From an uncultured bacterium (lineage in GTDB: Bacteria; Babelota; Babeliae; Babelales; Babelaceae): a stretch of DNA of 64,000 nt. Numbering within the stretch: position 1 is the stretch's first letter; every line of letters starts with the position of its first letter. Positions 25,896 to 37,910 of the stretch are shown here, piece after piece. The position numbers were made by a program, and so were the translations under genes. The stretch is taken from contig CAWFXL010000001.1 in NCBI GenBank assembly GCA_963819815.1, positions 576,001 to 640,000 of the forward strand. Reading direction: 5' to 3'. The notes under the pieces are model-generated. The model did no database searches, had not been told where the DNA came from, and saw only the letters and a program-made list of their open reading frames with translations.

Positions 25896-26575
25896 TAGTT
25901 ACCATCGATGGGCCAACTGCCTCCGGCAAATCTACCGTAGCTCGTGAGCTGGCCAAAAGACTCGGCATTACCTATATAAATTCAGGTCTTTTATTTCGCG
26001 CTTTGGCCTATCTTGCTGAAACAAAGCATCTTACCCTAAATTCAGAGTCACTGAATCATATTCTCACCTTAGGCAAAGAAAGCATCCTCCGTTACTGCTA
26101 TACTCAAGAACAAGGTGCTCAGGTATTTTACCAGGATGAAGATATCACCCCCCTACTTAAGACACCTTCAATGGACCAGCTAGCCTCCAAGATAGCTCTT
26201 GACCCTCAGGTACGAGAAGTCATAGCCCTCTATCAACAAAAGCTAGCTCAGACTCATAGTGTGATTGCTGAAGGTCGGGATTGTGGTACGGTTATATTTC
26301 CCCAAGCTGACTACAAATTCTACATCACCGCAAGTCTTGATGTGCGTGCTCAGCGTTGGCAAAAGGATCAGGAAAAAAAAGGTGCTCACTATACACTCAA
26401 AGAGAGTAAGCATTTCGTTGAAGAACGGGATACAAGAGACTCTGAAAGAAGTCTTGCTCCTCTTGCTATCCCAGTAGGAGCGCAGGTCATAGATACAAGT
26501 ACTATGACTATTGGCCAAGTTATTGACACTTGTTTAGCCTTCATCAAGCAAATGAACGACACCGAACTCGATTAA
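25892..26575 (+). CDS. cmk: Cytidylate kinase
   Basis: TIDGPTASGKST, EGRDCGTVIFP, ERDTRD.R..APL. Confidence 0.95.
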   Translation: MIVTIDGPTASGKSTVARELAKRLGITYINSGLLFRALAYLAETKHLTLNSESLNHILTLGKESILRYCYTQEQGAQVFYQDEDITPLLKTPSMDQLASKIALDPQVREVIALYQQKLAQTHSVIAEGRDCGTVIFPQADYKFYITASLDVRAQRWQKDQEKKGAHYTLKESKHFVEERDTRDSERSLAPLAIPVGAQVIDTSTMTIGQVIDTCLAFIKQMNDTELD

Positions 26576-26606
26576 CATAAGAACGACTTAGGTTGCTCTT
26601 TTTGCT

Positions 26607-26780
26607 TTTAATGTCAAAACACCGCCTTTTCCCGTGACATGAAATTGCCCTTTTCCCAATTTCATGTCAAATTTTTCATCCACTTATCTTGACATGAAAT
26701 TGGATTTTTCCGAGTTTCACGTCAAACCCATCACCTATTTTTCTTGACGTGAAATTGACTTTTTCCGCATTTCATGTCAA
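26607..26780 (+). repeat. Array of 37-bp palindromic units, 55-bp period, upstream of ATPase paralog 1
   Basis: Units 26634-26670, 26689-26725, 26744-26780 = (T/G)TGACRTGAAAT-N13-RTTTCAYGTCAA, 18-bp linkers; degenerate half-unit TTTAATGTCAA ending 26617. Confidence 0.9.
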
Positions 26781-26811
26781 ACTATATCTCATAAGAAAGA
26801 AAGGAAATGAT

Positions 26812-28251
26812 ATGTCACTTCCCTTTATTGGACGCAAAAAAGAGCTCGCCACTCTTGAGAAACTCTTAAAAAAGAGTGTTGCAAGCCTGGTAGTTGTCAA
26901 AGGCAGGCGCAGGATAGGGAAAAGCCGCCTCATCCAAGAATTTGCAAAAAAATATACCTTCTACCAATTTAGTGGGCTGCCCCTCACTCCAGAAACTTCT
27001 ATTCAATCTCAGCTAGATGCCTTTGCATTACAGTTAAGCGAACAAACAGGTCTTCCAAAAATTCAGGCCAATGATTGGAGTAAACTTTTTCATTTGCTAG
27101 CGGACAAAATTAAAACAGGAAGAATTATTGTCCTTTTTGATGAAATTTCTTGGATGGGATCAAAAGATCCAGACTTTCTCGGAAAATTTAAAAATGCTTG
27201 GGACATCTATTTCAAGAAGAACAATAAACTCATCTTCTTTCTCTGCGGTTCAGTATCATCATGGATTGATAAAAATATTTTAGCGAGCACAGGGTTCGTA
27301 GGAAGAATTTCCTTTAGACTTACCTTAGATGAACTCCCTTTAAATGAGTGTAACGAATTTTGGACACACAAAGATAGCCTCATTTCACCCTATGAAAAAT
27401 TCAAAATACTTTCTGTTACCGGAGGCATTCCACGCTATCTGGAGGAAATAGATACCTCACTTCCAGGCAATGAAAATATCAAAGATCTGTGCTTCTCACC
27501 AGGAGGTCTTCTTGTACATGAATTTCACGATATATTCTCAGATATATTTGGTCATCGGACTGGAATCTATAAAAGAATTGTTGAAGCTCTCGCAAATGGA
27601 CCCTTAGATGCAAAAAAAATATGTAAGCTCTTAGGAGTCACCTATACAGGAACCCAAAATGAATACTTAGATGATCTTGTCGCGTCTGGTTTTGTAAAGA
27701 GAGACTACACATGGCACTTCTCTACCGGGAAAATCTCGCGATTCAGCCAATTTCGATTAAGCGATAACTACGTACGCTTTTATCTTAAATACATTGATCC
27801 TGTTTTACCAAAAATTGAAAATCATACTTTTGATTTTGCCTCTCTCAGCGCACTTCCCGGATGGGAAACAATTAAAGGCTACCAATTTGAGAATCTCGTT
27901 TTAAAAAACAGGCGCTTCTTGAGAGAGTGTTTACACCTCAACCCTAATGATATTATCGCAGATAATCCCTTTTTCCAGCGAACAAGTGAGGAAGTCCCTG
28001 GTTGTCAAATCGATTACCTTATTCAAACTAAATTTAGAGTACTTTATGTCTGCGAGTTTAAATTTAGTAGTCAACCGGTTGGCACGAGGGTTATACGGGA
28101 AATGCAAGAAAAGATACGGAGACTATCATACCCTAAAGGATTTTCTATTCTGCCAGTTCTCGTACACGTTAACGGCGTCGACGACGAGGTCCTTGGCAGT
28201 GGATTTTTTGCAAACGTTATCGATTTTTCGCAAGCTCTTACCCAGGGTTAG
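26812..28251 (+). CDS. Archaeal-type P-loop ATPase + wHTH + PD-(D/E)XK nuclease-like protein (DUF234/DUF4143-like), paralog 1
   Basis: FIGRKKE, Walker A GRRRIGKS, Walker B VLFDE, LCGS, GGIPRYL, C-terminal QIDY..VCEFK; ATG 26812 after AAGGA. Confidence 0.88.
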   Translation: MSLPFIGRKKELATLEKLLKKSVASLVVVKGRRRIGKSRLIQEFAKKYTFYQFSGLPLTPETSIQSQLDAFALQLSEQTGLPKIQANDWSKLFHLLADKIKTGRIIVLFDEISWMGSKDPDFLGKFKNAWDIYFKKNNKLIFFLCGSVSSWIDKNILASTGFVGRISFRLTLDELPLNECNEFWTHKDSLISPYEKFKILSVTGGIPRYLEEIDTSLPGNENIKDLCFSPGGLLVHEFHDIFSDIFGHRTGIYKRIVEALANGPLDAKKICKLLGVTYTGTQNEYLDDLVASGFVKRDYTWHFSTGKISRFSQFRLSDNYVRFYLKYIDPVLPKIENHTFDFASLSALPGWETIKGYQFENLVLKNRRFLRECLHLNPNDIIADNPFFQRTSEEVPGCQIDYLIQTKFRVLYVCEFKFSSQPVGTRVIREMQEKIRRLSYPKGFSILPVLVHVNGVDDEVLGSGFFANVIDFSQALTQG

Positions 28252-28450
28252 CATATCTTCGAAAGTATAGAGTTTTTTACTGAGTTCATGAAGAACTACC
28301 AATTATCACTTGCCAATAAGAAAATGCATCACAGGCATAACTACAATAGCCAATCAATAAGTTTGTATTTTTGATTCATGGAAAAGGAAAGAAAACTTAT
28401 ATCAGTTCTTTGAGAACCTTTGATTTCTTCTTCTAGTAGAGTGTTTCTAA

Positions 28451-28509
28451 TCTTTCCCTCAGCCAAGGAAAGATGATCTTCCCACTTTTTTCCTTCCCCG
28501 AGGGAAAGA
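28451..28509. terminator. Hairpin between convergent ATPase gene and lysS
   Basis: TCTTTCCCTC...GAGGGAAAGA inverted repeat. Confidence 0.45.
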
Positions 28510-28544
28510 GGGCTCAATATTTCGCTTACGAGCCTCTCAATCGA

Positions 28545-30050
28545 CTATTTCTTTTTGAGTGTAGGGAAAAGTATCACTTCTTTGATCGAAGTAGTATTGG
28601 TGAGAATCATTGCTAAACGGTCGATCCCAATACCAACACCTGAGGTTGGCGGCAGTCCATACTCTAACGCACGTATAAAATCAGCATCAAATTGATGAGC
28701 CTCCTCATCACCAGCCTCCAAATTTTTGAGCTGATCGATGAAACGCTGCGCCTGATCGAAAGGATCATTTAACTCGTTATAGCTGTTTGCAATCTCCATG
28801 CCCGCAATAAAAAACTCAAACCGGGGAGCTATAGCAGGATTGTTCGGATCTTTTTTTGTCAGCGGCGATACCTCTATCGGGAACCCTACAATGAAGGTAG
28901 GCTGAATCAGCTTACTCTCAACAAGCTCTTCAAACAGCGCATAGACCTTTTCTGCAGGAGAAGCACCCTTTCTCAGCGTGACGCCATAGGTTTTCAATGC
29001 CGTATCAATTGTATCTTCTTGAAGATCGCTTTTGGTAAGTTTCGTATGTTCAATAAGCGCCTCAACCATGGAGCAGCGTTTAAACGGCTTCTCAAAGTCT
29101 ACAACATGCTCACCAAAAGGAGCATGAAGGGTACCACATACTTCTTTAACGACAGAGCGAACAAGCGCTTCTACAAAATTGAGACTATATTGGTAATCTT
29201 GATGAGCTGTATAAAATTCCAACATCGTAAACTCAGGATTATGACGCGTCGAAACACCTTCATTTCTAAAGTTCCGATTAATCTCAAAAACCCGCTCAAA
29301 ACCACCAATAATAAGCCGCTTTAAATACAGTTCAGGAGCTATACGTAAATAGAACTCTGAATGCAAGGCATTATAGTGCGTAACAAAAGGCTTTGCTGCA
29401 GCACCTCCTGCTATCGGATGCAGCATAGGAGTTTCTACTTCTACGTAATCATGAGCTTCAAGGTAGGCTCGCATCGTATGAATAAGTTTACTCCGCTTAA
29501 TAAAACGTTTACGAACCTCTTCGTCCATCAATAAATCTAAATACCGTTGACGGTACTTTGTTTCAATATCTTGTAACCCGTGAAACTTCTCAGGCAGTGG
29601 AAACAGACACTTTGAAAGGAGAACATATTTTTCAACCTTGAGGGTAACTTCACCCATCTTCGTTTTGAATGAGGAACCTTCTACCCACACAATATCCCCA
29701 ACATCAATAAGATGCTCAAAGATATCAAATGCTTCTTCCCCTACTTTATCACTGCGAAGATAGATCTGCAGACGCCCGGTGATATCCTGAATATGAGCAA
29801 ACGCAGTTTTTCCATGAAGACGAACGGTCATAAGTCGCCCTGCAATACTATACCGACGCTCAACCTCATCATCCTTAAATTCACTCAGAACCGTTTCACA
29901 GTGTGCTGTGGTCGGCATCATAGAAGGCCAAGGATCGATCCCTTTTTCACGAAGTTTGCGAACTTTTTCAACACGAACTCGATGCTCTGCCGACTCGTCA
30001 CTCAAGGCACCTTCAAGTTCGTGAAGGAGTCCATCTTTTTTTTCAGCCAT
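28545..30050 (-). CDS. lysS: Lysine--tRNA ligase (class II)
   Basis: YRQRYLDL, YLRIAPELYLKRL, FRNEG, HNPEFTMLE, GIGIDRL. Confidence 0.98.
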   Translation of the reverse strand: MAEKKDGLLHELEGALSDESAEHRVRVEKVRKLREKGIDPWPSMMPTTAHCETVLSEFKDDEVERRYSIAGRLMTVRLHGKTAFAHIQDITGRLQIYLRSDKVGEEAFDIFEHLIDVGDIVWVEGSSFKTKMGEVTLKVEKYVLLSKCLFPLPEKFHGLQDIETKYRQRYLDLLMDEEVRKRFIKRSKLIHTMRAYLEAHDYVEVETPMLHPIAGGAAAKPFVTHYNALHSEFYLRIAPELYLKRLIIGGFERVFEINRNFRNEGVSTRHNPEFTMLEFYTAHQDYQYSLNFVEALVRSVVKEVCGTLHAPFGEHVVDFEKPFKRCSMVEALIEHTKLTKSDLQEDTIDTALKTYGVTLRKGASPAEKVYALFEELVESKLIQPTFIVGFPIEVSPLTKKDPNNPAIAPRFEFFIAGMEIANSYNELNDPFDQAQRFIDQLKNLEAGDEEAHQFDADFIRALEYGLPPTSGVGIGIDRLAMILTNTTSIKEVILFPTLKKK

Positions 30051-30064
30051 TCTTTTTCATCTCA

Positions 30065-30820
30065 TTATGCTTTGACAGTACCCTTTTGTTCGATACTGTT
30101 TTGAGCGGCCACGTAATTTTTTTCAACCTGTTCCCAGTTTACCACATGCCACCAGGCATCACTATACTCAGCACGCCTATTTTGGTATTTCAAGTAATAA
30201 GCATGCTCCCATACATCAAGACCTAACAGCGGTATCAACCCTTGTGTAATAGGTGTATCTTGATTTGAGGTGGTCACAATTTTAAGGCCCCCATCTTTTG
30301 TAAGCACAAGCCATGCCCAACCGCTTCCAAATACACTCAGTGCAGCTTTATTAAACTGCTCCTTAAAGCTTTCAAGGCTACCAAAAGTTTTTTCAATAAG
30401 ATCTTTTATTAGGCCAACAGGTTGCTGTGCTGTAGGAGTCATACAAAGCCAGAAGAAGGAATGGTTATAATGGCCACCCCCATTATCACGAACTGCAGTA
30501 TGAATATATTCATAGTCTGGGAGTTCAGCTAAATGCGTAAGAAGGTATTCAAGAGATTTATTGCGAACCTCAGGAAAACTTTTTATTGCATCATTGAGCT
30601 TATCAACATATGCCTGATGATGCTTCGTATAATGAATCGTCATCGTCTCAGCATCAATATATGGTTCTAATGCATTAAATGCATAGGGCAAGGGAGGTAG
30701 CGTATAGGGATACGTTCCTTCAACATGGGCAACATGATTTTTATACATATAGGCACCACCAATAACAACCACTACCACGAGTCCCACTCCAAGGAGAATA
30801 GCAAGATTTCGATTCAACAT
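30065..30820 (-). CDS. sodA: Fe/Mn superoxide dismutase with N-terminal membrane anchor
   Basis: [35 protein letters not shown]; hydrophobic N-terminus. Confidence 0.92.
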   Translation of the reverse strand: MLNRNLAILLGVGLVVVVVIGGAYMYKNHVAHVEGTYPYTLPPLPYAFNALEPYIDAETMTIHYTKHHQAYVDKLNDAIKSFPEVRNKSLEYLLTHLAELPDYEYIHTAVRDNGGGHYNHSFFWLCMTPTAQQPVGLIKDLIEKTFGSLESFKEQFNKAALSVFGSGWAWLVLTKDGGLKIVTTSNQDTPITQGLIPLLGLDVWEHAYYLKYQNRRAEYSDAWWHVVNWEQVEKNYVAAQNSIEQKGTVKA

Positions 30821-30823
30821 AAC

Positions 30824-31438
30824 TCACCCACCATGTTTTTTATATAGTTCTTCAACGTAACCCCAATTCACCACATTCCACCAGGCTTGGATATAATCTA
30901 CACGACGATTTTGGTATTTGAGATAGTACGCATGCTCCCAAACGTCTAAACCAAGAATCGGCATATTCCCCTCTGACCAAGGCGTATCTTGATTAGCAGA
31001 AGAGGTAATTTCTAAGTTACCTGCCTTATTAAGAACCAGCCAGGCCCAACCACTACCGAAGCGGCTTTTTGCCGCAGTATTAAACTGTTCTTTAAATGCT
31101 TCAAAGGAGGTAAACTGCTTCTTAATTGCGTCAACTACAGTTCCTTGAGGAGTACCACCACCCTTGACCATCCAATCCCAAAAGAGTGTATGATTATAGT
31201 TTCCACCACCATTGTTTCTCACAGCAGTACGAATATCTTCAGGTATCTGCGTGAGGTTACCCAGTAACTCATCAAGTGTTTTACCCTGAAGTTCTGGATG
31301 ACCAGTAAGCGCTGCATTGAGGTTATCAACATACCCCTGGTGATGCTTCGTGTAATGGATCTCCATAGTACGCGCATCAATATAGGGCTCTAGGGCATCA
31401 TAGCTATATGGTAATGGGGGAAGCTTAAACATACTCAT
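30824..31438 (-). CDS. sodA: Fe/Mn superoxide dismutase, cytoplasmic
   Basis: [34 protein letters not shown]. Confidence 0.95.
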
Positions 31439-31722
31439 CCTTCAGGTAACAAATACACCGTTTCATTTTTGTAAGCCATTTGAAGCTCTTTTCGAGCTAT
31501 GCTTTCTTTATAAAAAGGATTCTGCTGACGCTCATCAAGTTCATATTGGAGTTGAGCTATTTCTTCATCAAGCATCTTTATGTCACTCAGAAGTTCCTTA
31601 TTAAGAGCATCGGCCTGCCTCAATGCGTGCAGACCACCCTTTCCAAACAAATAAAAAAAGACCACTAAAGCAATCTCAAAGCCGATAATAACACGTAATG
31701 CCGTTCTTTGTAATTCTTTCAT
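31435..31722 (-). CDS. ftsB: Septum formation initiator (FtsB/DivIC family)
   Basis: TM + FGKGG, coiled coil, E.IARKELQM...NE.VY. Confidence 0.8.
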
Positions 31723-32000
31723 AGGGTACTATTCTTTGGACGTCTCGCCACGTTTATGTTCACAAGGATAATTTCTCTGAATCTAGCGTAAAAGCATGAT
31801 CTTGACAAGCGAAAATTAGTAAGCATCAACCCCATAAGTGATTCAAATGGGGCAAGAAAGTAAGGTGGGCACACTTCATCTAAGATCGTGAACTGGAATG
31901 CAAAGCGGATCAAGCGTTACACTACTTGGTTGTTTGCTTATTGCCAGATTCATCAAAAACCCTATTGGATCCTAAGCAAGAGATATCATACAGCTTCTAT

Positions 32001-33473
32001 CTAGTCACTATTTTTAAACAGGTCATCAAGGGTACAGATTCCCGATATAAGTTCTTGTGAGTACATCGTTTTTTTAAGGCCGCTAGCAGAAATCATACTG
32101 ATTAAAAATGTTTTTTGGGTCTTTGTTTGCTTTTCAAAGACTTTGAGTTTATTAGCCAAATTTGTTGCACATGATTTATCGATGGTAAAAGGTGTTATGG
32201 TATATTTAATTTCGCACACGGTAATCACACCATCATCTCGGTCAAACAAAAGATCTATTTGAGCTCCTTGCTCAAGAGAGCCTTTTGGCGGAACATAACG
32301 CCAGGTATAGGGAATTGCAGCATCACTTATCTGCAAAGCTTTTCTTATTTGTGAGACATGTCTATGACATAATGACTCAAAAGCGTAGCCAGCCCAACTA
32401 TGCCATGCAGGAGAATGTTGCACCTTTTCCCAATGTCCCTTGCTCATCCCTTTCTCCTGCAAAGTTCCTTTGATTGGCTCAATCCATTGAAAATAAAATA
32501 AACTATATTCGTCAACCATCTTATAATAGTAGCTCTTCTTGGCGGAGAATGGTGTGAACCGCTCAATAAATCCCGCCTTCTGTAAGTCTTGAAGACGTTG
32601 CACTAACGTGCCTCCACTTGAAGCGTGAAGAGCCTTTCTTGTCAACTCTTCTTGGCTAATTCCATAGCGGCAACCTGCGATAATTCTTGCTAACTCGATA
32701 TGGTCTTCACCACTATCAAAAAGCGTGGCATATAAGTTTTCAAATTCCTCAAGCAAGAAGCTGTGTTTTCTAAAGGCAAGATCAGCTATAACCTGTACCG
32801 CAGATAATCCTGGCCTGATCTGTGAAAGGTAAAAAGGAATACCTCCCAAGATCATATAGAGATCAGCTATATGCTTATTGCTTAGAGTAACCTTCTTGTA
32901 CTGCAAGTACTTTTTTGTCTCGTTGAGGGTAAATGGTTCAAGACAAATCCTCCGGGTAACACGATTATATAAAGCTCCACGATTGTTAACGATCTGCTTG
33001 AGTATCCAACCTGCTGAAGAACCGCAAATGATGAGCTTAACCCGAGAATCGTTGCTCGCGTGCTGATTCCAGAAATATTCAAATGCGGTCAGAAGTTCTG
33101 ATTTTCTTGTCGCCATCCAAGGAAACTCATCAAAGAATAGAACTATCTTCTTTTTCTGCGAGGCCTTTATTTCTCCCGCAAGTAGGTCAAGAGTATCATA
33201 CCAGTTTTCTGGCGGCTCAAGCCGTGCGCCAGGTCGATAAAAACACTCGCCAATTTGGTTCACAAAATTCTTAATCTGCTGGGCAACCTTTCCTTCCTTC
33301 ATTCCTGTTATCGTAAAAAATATTGTATTTTTCCTGTCGAGAAACGTATTTCGAACCAGATACGTCTTGCCGACTCTGCGCCGACCAAACAGTGCAATAA
33401 GCTCTGAACTATCTGATAAAAAAGCATCTTCAAGAATTCGCTTTTCCTCATACCTACCAATTATTGGTTTCAT
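32001..33473 (-). CDS. Archaeal-type P-loop ATPase + wHTH + PD-(D/E)XK nuclease-like protein, paralog 2
   Basis: IIGRYEE, Walker A GRRRVGKT, Walker B FFDEFPW, ICGS, GGIPFYL, GAQIDL..VCEIKY. Confidence 0.88.
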   Translation of the reverse strand: MKPIIGRYEEKRILEDAFLSDSSELIALFGRRRVGKTYLVRNTFLDRKNTIFFTITGMKEGKVAQQIKNFVNQIGECFYRPGARLEPPENWYDTLDLLAGEIKASQKKKIVLFFDEFPWMATRKSELLTAFEYFWNQHASNDSRVKLIICGSSAGWILKQIVNNRGALYNRVTRRICLEPFTLNETKKYLQYKKVTLSNKHIADLYMILGGIPFYLSQIRPGLSAVQVIADLAFRKHSFLLEEFENLYATLFDSGEDHIELARIIAGCRYGISQEELTRKALHASSGGTLVQRLQDLQKAGFIERFTPFSAKKSYYYKMVDEYSLFYFQWIEPIKGTLQEKGMSKGHWEKVQHSPAWHSWAGYAFESLCHRHVSQIRKALQISDAAIPYTWRYVPPKGSLEQGAQIDLLFDRDDGVITVCEIKYTITPFTIDKSCATNLANKLKVFEKQTKTQKTFLISMISASGLKKTMYSQELISGICTLDDLFKNSD

Positions 33474-33522
33474 ACTTTACCCATTCACCAAAAGAGAGCC
33501 TTACCAATTTCACCAGAGATAT

Positions 33523-33643
33523 GTAGCGGAAAAATAAGAAAACTATGAAAATTCCGCTGGGAATAAAATAACATATCCAGCGGAAAAAACCAATTTTTGC
33601 AAAAAAACCGCTGGCTATATATCAACATTCCCAGCGGAATTTT
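33523..33643 (-). repeat. Array of 38-bp inverted-repeat units, 54-bp period, upstream of ATPase paralog 2
   Basis: Alternating (CC)AGCGGAA and (TT)CCGCTGG half-sites: units 33523-33560 and 33577-33614, third left arm at 33631; 16-bp linkers. Confidence 0.85.
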
Positions 33644-36064: not shown

Positions 36065-37910
36065 TCACTCAACCGTGAGAGACTTTGCAAGATTCCGAGG
36101 CTTATCTATCGGACGCCCAAGGTGCTTTGCAATAGAATAGGCAAAGAACTGCATGAGCCCCGTCATAGCAAGCGGACCAAGAAGAGGATCAACCTGAGGC
36201 AATACAAAGGAGGTATCTGCAAGCTCAATAAGCTCTTTTTGACCTTCAAAGGCAAAGACCAGCAGATGCCCATTGCGAGCTTTTACCTCTTGAGCATTCG
36301 CGACAAGCTTTTGATAGAGAACTGGATCAAGCACGGAGAAAACAAACACCGGCATATGCTCATCAACAAGCGCTAGTGGTCCGTGCTTAAGCTCAGCTGC
36401 TGGATAACAGTCTGTAAATATGTATGATATTTCCTTAAGCTTTAACGATGCTTCCCGTGCAAAAGGATAGGTAATATGACGTCCAAGGAACAAAGCATTT
36501 TTATATAAAGCATACTGTGGTGCTAACTTCTCTACGATCACCTTTTTATAGGTATCGATCGCATTTTCAAGAATCTCTGCAACTACCAGAAGCTCATCTT
36601 CTGAAGCCTCAAGAGTTCGCTTATCGATACAACCTCGTTCATAGGCCATCTTGTGAGCAAGCCAATAGAGCGCCGCTACTTGTGCTGAAAAGGCTTTTGT
36701 TGAAGCTACAGCAACTTCTGGACCTGCATATAACGGAAGATAGCCATCAGTCTCACGTACCATAGTGCTTGATGGGACATTTACCAAAGCCACCGTATGC
36801 ATCTTCTGACTTTTTAGAAACCTGAGCGCTTCTAACGTATCAGCAGTCTCACCTGACTGACTTATCCCGATGCCAATACTTCGCATCTCCGGGAAGAATT
36901 CCTGATAGCGCATCTCAGACGCAAGACCAACTTCAATTTTTATGTGCGCAAGAGACTCAAAAAAGTACTGCCCAACTAAAGCAGCGTGCCACGAGGTACC
37001 ACATCCTACAAAGGTAATACTTTTAAGATCTTTTATCTGCTGAGAAGATACACCCATGCGCTGCCAAAGAGTATCTGCCAATGCACGATAGTTATGCACG
37101 GTATCTTGGATAACCTTCTTCTGATCGTAAATCTCTTTGAGCATAAAATGCTCAAAACCCTGCTTTAAATCTGATCCCATTGGTATATTCACCAACTCAA
37201 ACTGCACCGGCATCTCGTTGCCCATAAAGTCAAACAGCTTAACCGAATCCTTCTTCACTAACGCAAAGCTCTCATCAGGTACAAAGAATATCTTCGTGGT
37301 CTTACCGGCAAATGCGAGAATGTCTGACGCTATATACATCTCACCCTCGCCTCTACCTATACAGAGCGGCGAGCGTTTGCGTATAATAACCAAGGTATCG
37401 GGACAGTCACTGAGCATAAGAGCACAGGCATAGGCTCCTTCAAGCACATTGACGAGTTCAATGAGTGCATTTTTTAAGATCGTGTGGCGCGTAAGAAGAG
37501 ATTCCAATAGATGAGCAATAACTTCGGTATCGGTCTGCGAGCGAAAGGTATGTCCCTTCTTTTAAAAGCTGTATCTTCAGCTCATGGTGATTCTCGATAA
37601 TCCCATTATGGACGACCGAGATCTTTTTTTCACAATCAAAATGAGGGTGTGCATTTTCAGTGGAGCTCACTCCATGAGTAGACCAACGGGTATGCCCAAG
37701 GCCAATAAAGCCATCAATAGGTACGAGATCAAACGTCTTTAATAAGTTTGATACGCCCCCTTGGGATTTGGTGTACATAATCTGATGGGTATCAGGATGT
37801 AAACAAGCAAACCCCGCAGAATCATACCCACGATACTCAAGATGCGTAAGACCTTCCATAACGAAGGATCGGCTGTAGCTTTTGCCTACATACCCTACAA
37901 CACTGCACAT
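36065..37910 (-). CDS. glmS: Glutamine--fructose-6-phosphate aminotransferase, one frameshift near 37555
   Basis: MCSVVG, LEYRGYDSAG, GHTRWSTHG, HNGIIEN; removing one G in GAAGGGA restores GHTFRSQTDTEVIAHL; SQSGETAD, PRNLAKSLTVE. Confidence 0.93.

Follow-up and report, generated by a model that had tools for sequence, protein, structure and literature searches.

The window analyzed here, a 64,000 nt stretch of contig CAWFXL010000001.1 from an uncultured bacterium of the Babelaceae (assembly GCA_963819815.1), carries two paralogous genes for an ATPase fused to a predicted nuclease, each preceded by an array of short inverted repeats. As a first reading made from the letters alone (the sequence-only reading) had described them, gene 1 lies at 26812-28251 on the forward strand and encodes 479 amino acids (protein 1), and gene 2 lies at 32001-33473 on the reverse strand and encodes 490 amino acids (protein 2). 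The two proteins are 26% identical and fall into two clades, I and II respectively. Both match the PADLOC model of PDC-S27 (ATPase_2 PF01637 plus DUF234 PF03008, COG1672) over nearly their full length (E 4e-83 for protein 1 and 3e-162 for protein 2), and both pass the 33.2-bit cut-off of Pfam PF01637, protein 1 with 56.8 bits (E 3.6e-15) and protein 2 with 59.2 bits (E 6.8e-16). PF03008 itself was matched by protein 2 only, at 18 bits and thus under its cut-off of 22.5, together with a weak sub-cut-off match to PF13635. In the accessible text of PMC12988326, PDC-S27 is an ATPase fused to a PD-(D/E)XK domain, with 3503 archaeal and 4562 bacterial systems; the portion of PMC3424549 available to us lists DUF234/COG1672 and DUF4143/COG1373 both as PD-(D/E)XK families, the function of the second being unknown.

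An AlphaFold (AF2) model of protein 1, built on a 51-row alignment with a pLDDT (predicted local distance difference test) of 93, predicts an AAA+ ATPase module (residues ~1-235), a winged helix (~237-317) and a C-terminal alpha/beta domain that probably corresponds to the PD-(D/E)XK nuclease (~350-479); alignment gives protein 2 the same three domains. Within the modelled winged helix the recognition helix spans residues 280-292 and the wing 295-316, with other helices at 267-274 and ending at 262. Matches from a fold search with protein 1 cover the ATPase and winged helix (residues 1-332) and leave the nuclease domain outside. The closest were the archaeal ATPases 2qen (Z 21.3) and 2fna (Z 20.7), over residues 1-327, followed by nucleotide-binding leucine-rich repeat receptors (NLRs) and Orc1/Cdc6 (2qby, Z 14.0), and comparison of hidden Markov models gave E 6e-12 for 2fna and E 5e-09 for 2qen. 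An AlphaFold homodimer of protein 1 scored 0.00, and was used neither for nor against any reading. From 330 loci and 296 open reading frame (ORF) hits, after removal of 24 partial, 22 duplicate and 5 short-flank sequences, we retained 245 full-length homologs. In these, Walker A (GRRRxGK), Walker B (DE), S147, R165, which is probably the arginine finger, and nuclease residues E360, D401, E415 and K417 are kept in 99-100%. Conservation within the protein is lowest at the turn and the start of the recognition helix (0.45 vs 0.65 for the ATPase).

Array 1 (26605-26781, +) consists of seven alternating half-sites with the consensus ATTTCATGTCAA, whose invariant G recurs each 25-28 bp with a period of 55 bp. 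Inverted units of 37 bp stand at 26634-26670, 26689-26725 and 26744-26780, separated by linkers of 18 bp, and 55-bp direct copies begin at 26635, 26690 and 26745, each of them an inverted pair; the seventh half-site lies further upstream, and the array ends 31 bp before the ATG of gene 1. Array 2 (33518-33639, -) has five alternating half-sites with the core CCAGCGGAA, in steps of 23 and 31 bp and with a period of 54 bp. Half-sites of the CCAGCGGAA type form its 38-bp unit at 33577-33614, next to a 16-bp linker, and the last half-site, ~45 bp from the ATG of gene 2, is degenerate. The array score looks, within 300 bp upstream of a gene start, for a 12-mer that recurs on both strands. Array 1 scored 32.0 and array 2 scored 16.2, values reached by 0/300 dinucleotide shuffles in each case (best shuffles 10.0 and 8.4), and the two rank first and second among the 46 gene starts scored in the window.

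The unit, linker and period lengths first reported (37/18/55 and 38/16/54 bp) hold. The further claim that the arrays pair one geometry with unrelated arms was only partly borne out. The arm sequences do differ, but in a register derived from the homologs both share a loose frame, with an A/T tract at -7 to -4 and an invariant G at position 0, and are not wholly unrelated. Likewise the periods are near-equal, but the half-sites are phased differently, with G-to-G steps of 27 and 27-28 bp in clade I and of 30-31 and 23-24 bp in clade II. The natural repeat unit is the half-site, not the palindrome.

The 1.64-Mb source genome encodes 11 full-length PDC-S27 paralogs and two fragments, in the same two clades and 22-63% identical, and 9/11 paralogs score at least 10 for an upstream array. 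When weight matrices of these nine arrays were scanned across the genome, each gave 0-2 stray single matches and none gave a cluster away from its own gene. Eight matrices were also compared with the 11 upstream regions; the weakest own site scored above every non-cognate region (nearest cases 18.3 vs 20.4 and 14.5 vs 15.9), own-site scores being inflated by construction. It is thus hardly credible that the repeats are a genome-wide family of miniature inverted-repeat transposable elements (MITE) or repetitive extragenic palindromes (REP), or binding sites for a single regulator of the host: inverted-repeat arrays do occur at other genes as well, but every motif stays with a single gene and varies in step with the helix which that gene encodes. 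For the motif cores, restriction-type avoidance was considered separately and rejected (counts of 32 vs 32.6, 39 vs 36.0, 32 vs 23.0 and 37 vs 34.9).

The arrays are not peculiar to the two window genes. Across the genome, 20/1115 gene starts score at least 15: seven PDC-S27 genes, seven PDC-S01 genes, two divergent neighbors sharing their intergenic regions, and four others, namely a Schlafen AlbA_2-HATPase_c_4 gene, an AbiEi gene, an HTH_3 gene and lepA. These identities come from a scan of 24 proteins, with one divergent neighbor judged by coordinates and motif only. The genome has 18 PDC-S01-like (AAA_14-DUF4143) genes (C1:791685, 1166983, 665695 and 1249572 are examples), which with the 11 PDC-S27 genes make 29 stand-alone ATPase-nucleases; 12/18 score at least 10 and have private upstream arrays. 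Several of the PDC-S01 arrays repeat at 64-65 bp against 54-55 bp in PDC-S27, so the period follows the protein family. Private inverted-repeat arrays also stand upstream of the Schlafen AlbA_2-HATPase_c_4 gene (C1:1018624), the AbiEi antitoxin gene (C1:110523), a DUF4172-Fic gene (C1:137102) and the HTH_3 gene (C1:1271934). Taken together, the PDC-S27, PDC-S01, AbiEi, Schlafen and HTH_3 cases indicate that private arrays are characteristic of a class of accessory genes that stand alone and have their own DNA-binding domain. At lepA (C1:1578682-1580505), four alternating inverted sites lie 212-294 bp upstream (score 28); this is the only top-scoring array without a link to an accessory DNA-binding gene, and it may belong to a neighboring gene or RNA.

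Inverted repeats and their periodicity recur upstream of the homologs, where such repeats had been expected if the arrays belong to the genes. Upstream scores reach at least 10 in 170/245 homologs and at least 15 in 112/245, compared with 19/173 and 4/173 in downstream controls and 0/245 inside the gene. Same-strand site spacings fall at 53-56 bp in 217/325 cases and at 49-57 bp in 249/325, and the last site ends a median of 33 bp before the start codon. In 7/142 homologs (L023, L028, L137, L142, L149, L240 and L302) the gene's own motif also occurs downstream. In one clade II subgroup (C1:76901 = L079, L013, L017, L030 and L137) the period is 50-51 bp and the helix-2 turn is shorter in several members, which may hint that protein packing and period are linked. 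Viral contigs carry six near-identical homologs of clade I (L160-L165); these score 0-6, with no array detectable upstream of any of them, and may be co-transcribed with a neighbor.

Covariation of the sites with their proteins was measured by comparing motif similarity with protein similarity in sliding windows, after removal of overall identity. When first scanned with unregistered motifs, clade II (n = 52) peaked at 274-280 and clade I (n = 27) had no helix peak; more clade I loci were added after this. With 91/162 clade I loci, selected by requiring at least three sites and by 85% dereplication, all of the 15 top windows begin within 244-252 or 272-278, inside the winged helix, and the best single column is residue 278; the helix window was reached by 0/200 free permutations and by 0/200 permutations within 50%-identity clusters. 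For clade II, sites were re-oriented by DNA spacing alone (15 flipped, 3 dropped, n = 52), and the best window was then 278-286 (r 0.248); across all windows, 5, 2 and 0 of 300 permutations matched that value. The suggestion that arm sequence co-varies with the recognition helix thus held in both clades after identity correction, in clade II only once orientation had been fixed.

In clade I the top pairs by mutual information with average product correction were 278/-1, 273/-2, 281/+3 and 278/-2 (residue/base). Residues 278 and 281, which covary with half-site bases -1 and +3, lie in the stretch that forms the turn and recognition helix of protein 1 (codons 276-292, 27637-27687, +). Ser278 goes with C at -1 in 9/9 cases, Lys278 with T in 34/38 and Gln278 mostly with A (5/8), and Arg281 or Lys281 goes with C at +3 in 10/15, His accounting for the other C bases (3/13). 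On a neighbor-joining tree built without the winged helix, Ser278 and Arg/Lys281 need 5 and 7 parsimony changes. Among 39 disjoint nearest pairs, residue 281 ranks second of all columns for base +3, and 278 and 279 come next. This covariation with the helix, together with the low conservation of the turn and helix start, points to direct readout of the sites by the cognate winged helix. The proposal that each paralog recognizes its own array likewise gains support, at the level of sequence comparison, from the private motifs, the conserved period and the covariation.

The array would then consist of double-stranded DNA sites to which the product of the gene directly downstream binds, and we consider the binding of each protein to its own array very probable. 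One winged helix would read one ~12-bp half-site, with the start of the recognition helix reading the variable bases on either side of the invariant G, and with the A/T tract probably contacted by the wing or through the minor groove. The 54-55 bp period would be set by the packing of neighboring protomers, of which three to eight would load cooperatively in alternating orientation. Since the array takes up the promoter region, repression of the gene is the most likely outcome of loading. By repressing its own gene, the protein would hold the amount of a nuclease with intact motifs low and under its own control at any place where the one-gene cassette inserts, and joint change of helix and sites would insulate the paralogs, so that 11 copies could coexist in a small genome and not repress one another. 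The ATPase most likely acts as a switch, releasing the nuclease on some signal, in defence or addiction. On the comparisons made here, the best reading is probably that each protein binds its own array and represses its own promoter, with autorepression the likeliest function of binding. Repression of the own gene is reasonably probable as a claim in itself, and the chances of a defence role are about even. A cooperative operator was among the options that the sequence-only reading had listed, and it appears to be the best supported of them.

Evidence from promoters is consistent with this in part. An imperfect hairpin followed by a T run (26579-26609, +), noticed by eye after the cmk stop codon and absent from the tool scan listing, is a possible terminator, and if it acts as one, gene 1 would depend on a promoter inside array 1, which occupies nearly the whole gap from this hairpin to the ribosome site of gene 1. 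A clear -35/-10 pair is visible inside the array in many paralogs. For promoter overlap we used our own scoring by consensus weights; by it, strong promoter-like matches lie over half-site cores in 21/26 cases in clade II, an enrichment over the 14.2 expected. The same scoring found a weak promoter-like match, TTGACT-17-CAAACT (26755-26783, +), across the last half-sites of array 1, below the threshold of the tool scan.

Several results weigh against autorepression through cognate binding. The tool scan called no sigma70 promoter upstream of either window gene, and in clade I promoter-like matches over half-site cores showed no enrichment (14/31, expected 17.2). Two of the 11 paralogs score 5.3 and 6.0, with short inverted repeats visible nonetheless, and 75/245 homologs score below 10; the homologs are moreover kin, so that counts among them overstate independence. 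Under the tightest clade I permutation (within 55%-identity clusters) the helix window was reached in 11/200 cases. In 44 disjoint nearest pairs, residue 278 falls outside the eight best columns for base -1. The first registered test of clade II (n = 55) was not significant, its best window being 108 and 25 to 85/200 permutations reaching it, because the GC core is self-complementary and the sites were oriented both ways. Significance in this clade came only on the second attempt, after the orientation fix, and its single columns are still noisy.

Among the rival explanations, the one that survives best makes the array mainly a loading or holding platform, on which an ordered nucleoprotein complex keeps the nuclease off, as a DNA antitoxin, or primes it, and from which loss, damage or competition for the array would release activity. 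Site number (at least four detected in 103/146 arrays) and a very tight period, together beyond the needs of simple repression, and the near-invariance of the Walker motifs, R165 and the nuclease motif in the 245 homologs leave room for an array that holds or arms the nuclease. A fold near those of Orc1/Cdc6 and TnsC/MuB, proteins that assemble on DNA, and the lack of promoter-overlap enrichment in clade I agree with such a role. We nevertheless regard it as unlikely. The arrays sit on the promoter side, close before the start codon, with own motifs downstream in only the seven homologs named above; genes without an ATPase (AbiEi, Fic and HTH_3) have similar arrays in the source genome; and multi-site cooperative operators are described for AbiEi-type antitoxins in the accessible part of PMC7319586. 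Less likely again is a fuller form of the idea, in which three to eight protomers in a lattice of head-to-head and tail-to-tail contacts hold the nuclease off, array breakdown, loss or out-competition in infection frees a lethal nuclease, and each paralog is an independent sentinel of its own locus through its helix-to-base code.

The arrays might alternatively be the ends or targets of a mobile cassette, which the nuclease would cut so that the gene moves or is copied. In the genus the family is expanded, being present in 9/9 of its other genomes (up to 14 matches) and in 1/31 further relatives; searches with protein 2 found it in 6/201 genomes of a phylum sample, and it occurs in 70/201 genomes of the order of genome G210. 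Both window slots also lack the gene in relatives: it is directly behind cmk in 0/7 recJ-cmk loci, one of which has a gene of clade II at a distance of 1.1 kb on the opposite strand, and within 1.5 kb in 0/5 loci of the small gene at 31435-31722. Insertions of the cassette are single and sporadic. Mobile ends are improbable all the same: the sites are one-sided, paralogs at 22-63% identity with different motifs argue against recent copying of one unit, and the genome holds no stray motif clusters. The cmk-lysS gap (window 26575-28545) is a variable slot, in which two relatives (L336 and L338) carry other small genes, as a general insertion hot spot would; one of these we take to be MerR-like and the other presumably resembles a minimal nucleotidyltransferase.

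Very improbable is the option, also raised by the sequence-only reading, that transcription of the arrays yields structured repeat RNAs which would bind or guide the protein. As RNA, the two array regions do fold much better than shuffled sequences (z -6.8 and -4.4), and in clade I sense-strand G-U mispairs outnumber A-C (70 vs 43). Good folding is, however, expected of any inverted repeat, and adjacent inverted partners differ from each other as much as distant ones do (clade I, 0.107 and 0.104 vs 0.100; clade II, 0.149 and 0.150 vs 0.160), giving no hairpin-specific similarity. Most mispairs (270) are neither G-U (134) nor A-C (101), and clade II lacks the asymmetry (64 vs 58). There are no variable spacers for guiding, the repeats differ between paralogs, and a comparison with Rfam gave a single match, well under the threshold. 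The sites behave like double-stranded DNA sites for a protein. The motif has no match in its own gene (0/88) and no positional peak, and on the same counts we rejected the idea that it copies the Gly-Gly codons of the helix start.

Autorepression through cognate binding has its closest published parallel in AbiEi, of which two monomers bind promoter inverted repeats cooperatively and autorepress, with two sets of repeats for Rv2827c (PMC7319586, from the text available). AbiEi and Rv2827c share with the window genes the inverted repeats in their own promoter, and the AbiEi gene of the source genome has such repeats too. Unlike AbiEi, the reader and putative effector are here one polypeptide with an AAA+ switch and no partner gene, and PDC-S27 arrays have three to eight sites at a fixed period of 54-55 bp. 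SSO1545 (2fna) and PAB2304 (2qen), the closest solved folds, are both ~350 amino acids long and their match excludes the nuclease domain. Immune STAND (signal transduction ATPases with numerous domains) NTPases carry C-terminal sensor repeats, according to the accessible part of 10.64898/2026.10.19.760177, and these are absent in the window proteins. PDC-S01 (AAA_14 plus DUF4143, COG1373) shares the three-part design and the private upstream arrays but is a separate family, with several arrays at the longer period. Compared with CRISPR- or TIGR-like repeat-array guide RNAs, the arrays lack hairpin-specific pairing and variable guide spacers.

Orc1/Cdc6 proteins bind origin recognition boxes, with paralog-specific boxes next to their own gene, and DnaA and plasmid Rep proteins autoregulate. 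The likeness to Orc1/Cdc6 (2qby, Z 14) lies in the AAA+ and winged-helix fold; PDC-S27 proteins differ in having ~130 further residues after the winged helix, with a conserved PD-(D/E)XK motif, and 11 copies scattered between housekeeping genes. Given these dispersed copies, an origin role is unlikely.

Self-regulating operators are a known kind of element; what appears to be new is the presence of such a putative operator, with its fixed period and helix-to-base code, in PDC-S27. A literature search, with supplements and subscription papers outside its scope, found no description of PDC-S27 arrays. The accounts of PDC-S27 in the accessible text of PMC12988326 and bioRxiv 10.1101/2024.01.29.577857 are silent on upstream arrays, DNA specificity and autoregulation, and the available part of PMC13056530 mentions neither inverted repeats nor autoregulation. 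The 145 PDCs are called untested in what is accessible of the bioRxiv paper, and PDC-S27 and PDC-S01 are placed among the commonest predicted defence genes in the text of PMC12988326 open to us. The papers found give neither family a substrate or a mechanism; the arrays provide every member with a predicted DNA ligand. The 54-55 bp period offers a geometry for structural work, exchange of residues 278 and 281 should alter specificity, and heterologous defence tests should include 200-300 bp of upstream DNA. The eleven protein-site pairs, if insulated as proposed, would form a natural library of orthogonal DNA readers within one genome. Should the array do no more than repress transcription, the biology would be conventional; an array that also gates the nuclease would be a new way of sensing infection.

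Two further loci in the window were noted in passing. At 30065-31438 (-) there are two tandem genes, presumably superoxide-dismutase-like, one of which has an N-terminal hydrophobic segment; the pair is also found in 3/5 relatives. At 36065-37910 (-) one gene, which we take to be glmS-like, is split into ORFs of 150 and 480 amino acids, suggesting a frameshift or an assembly error.

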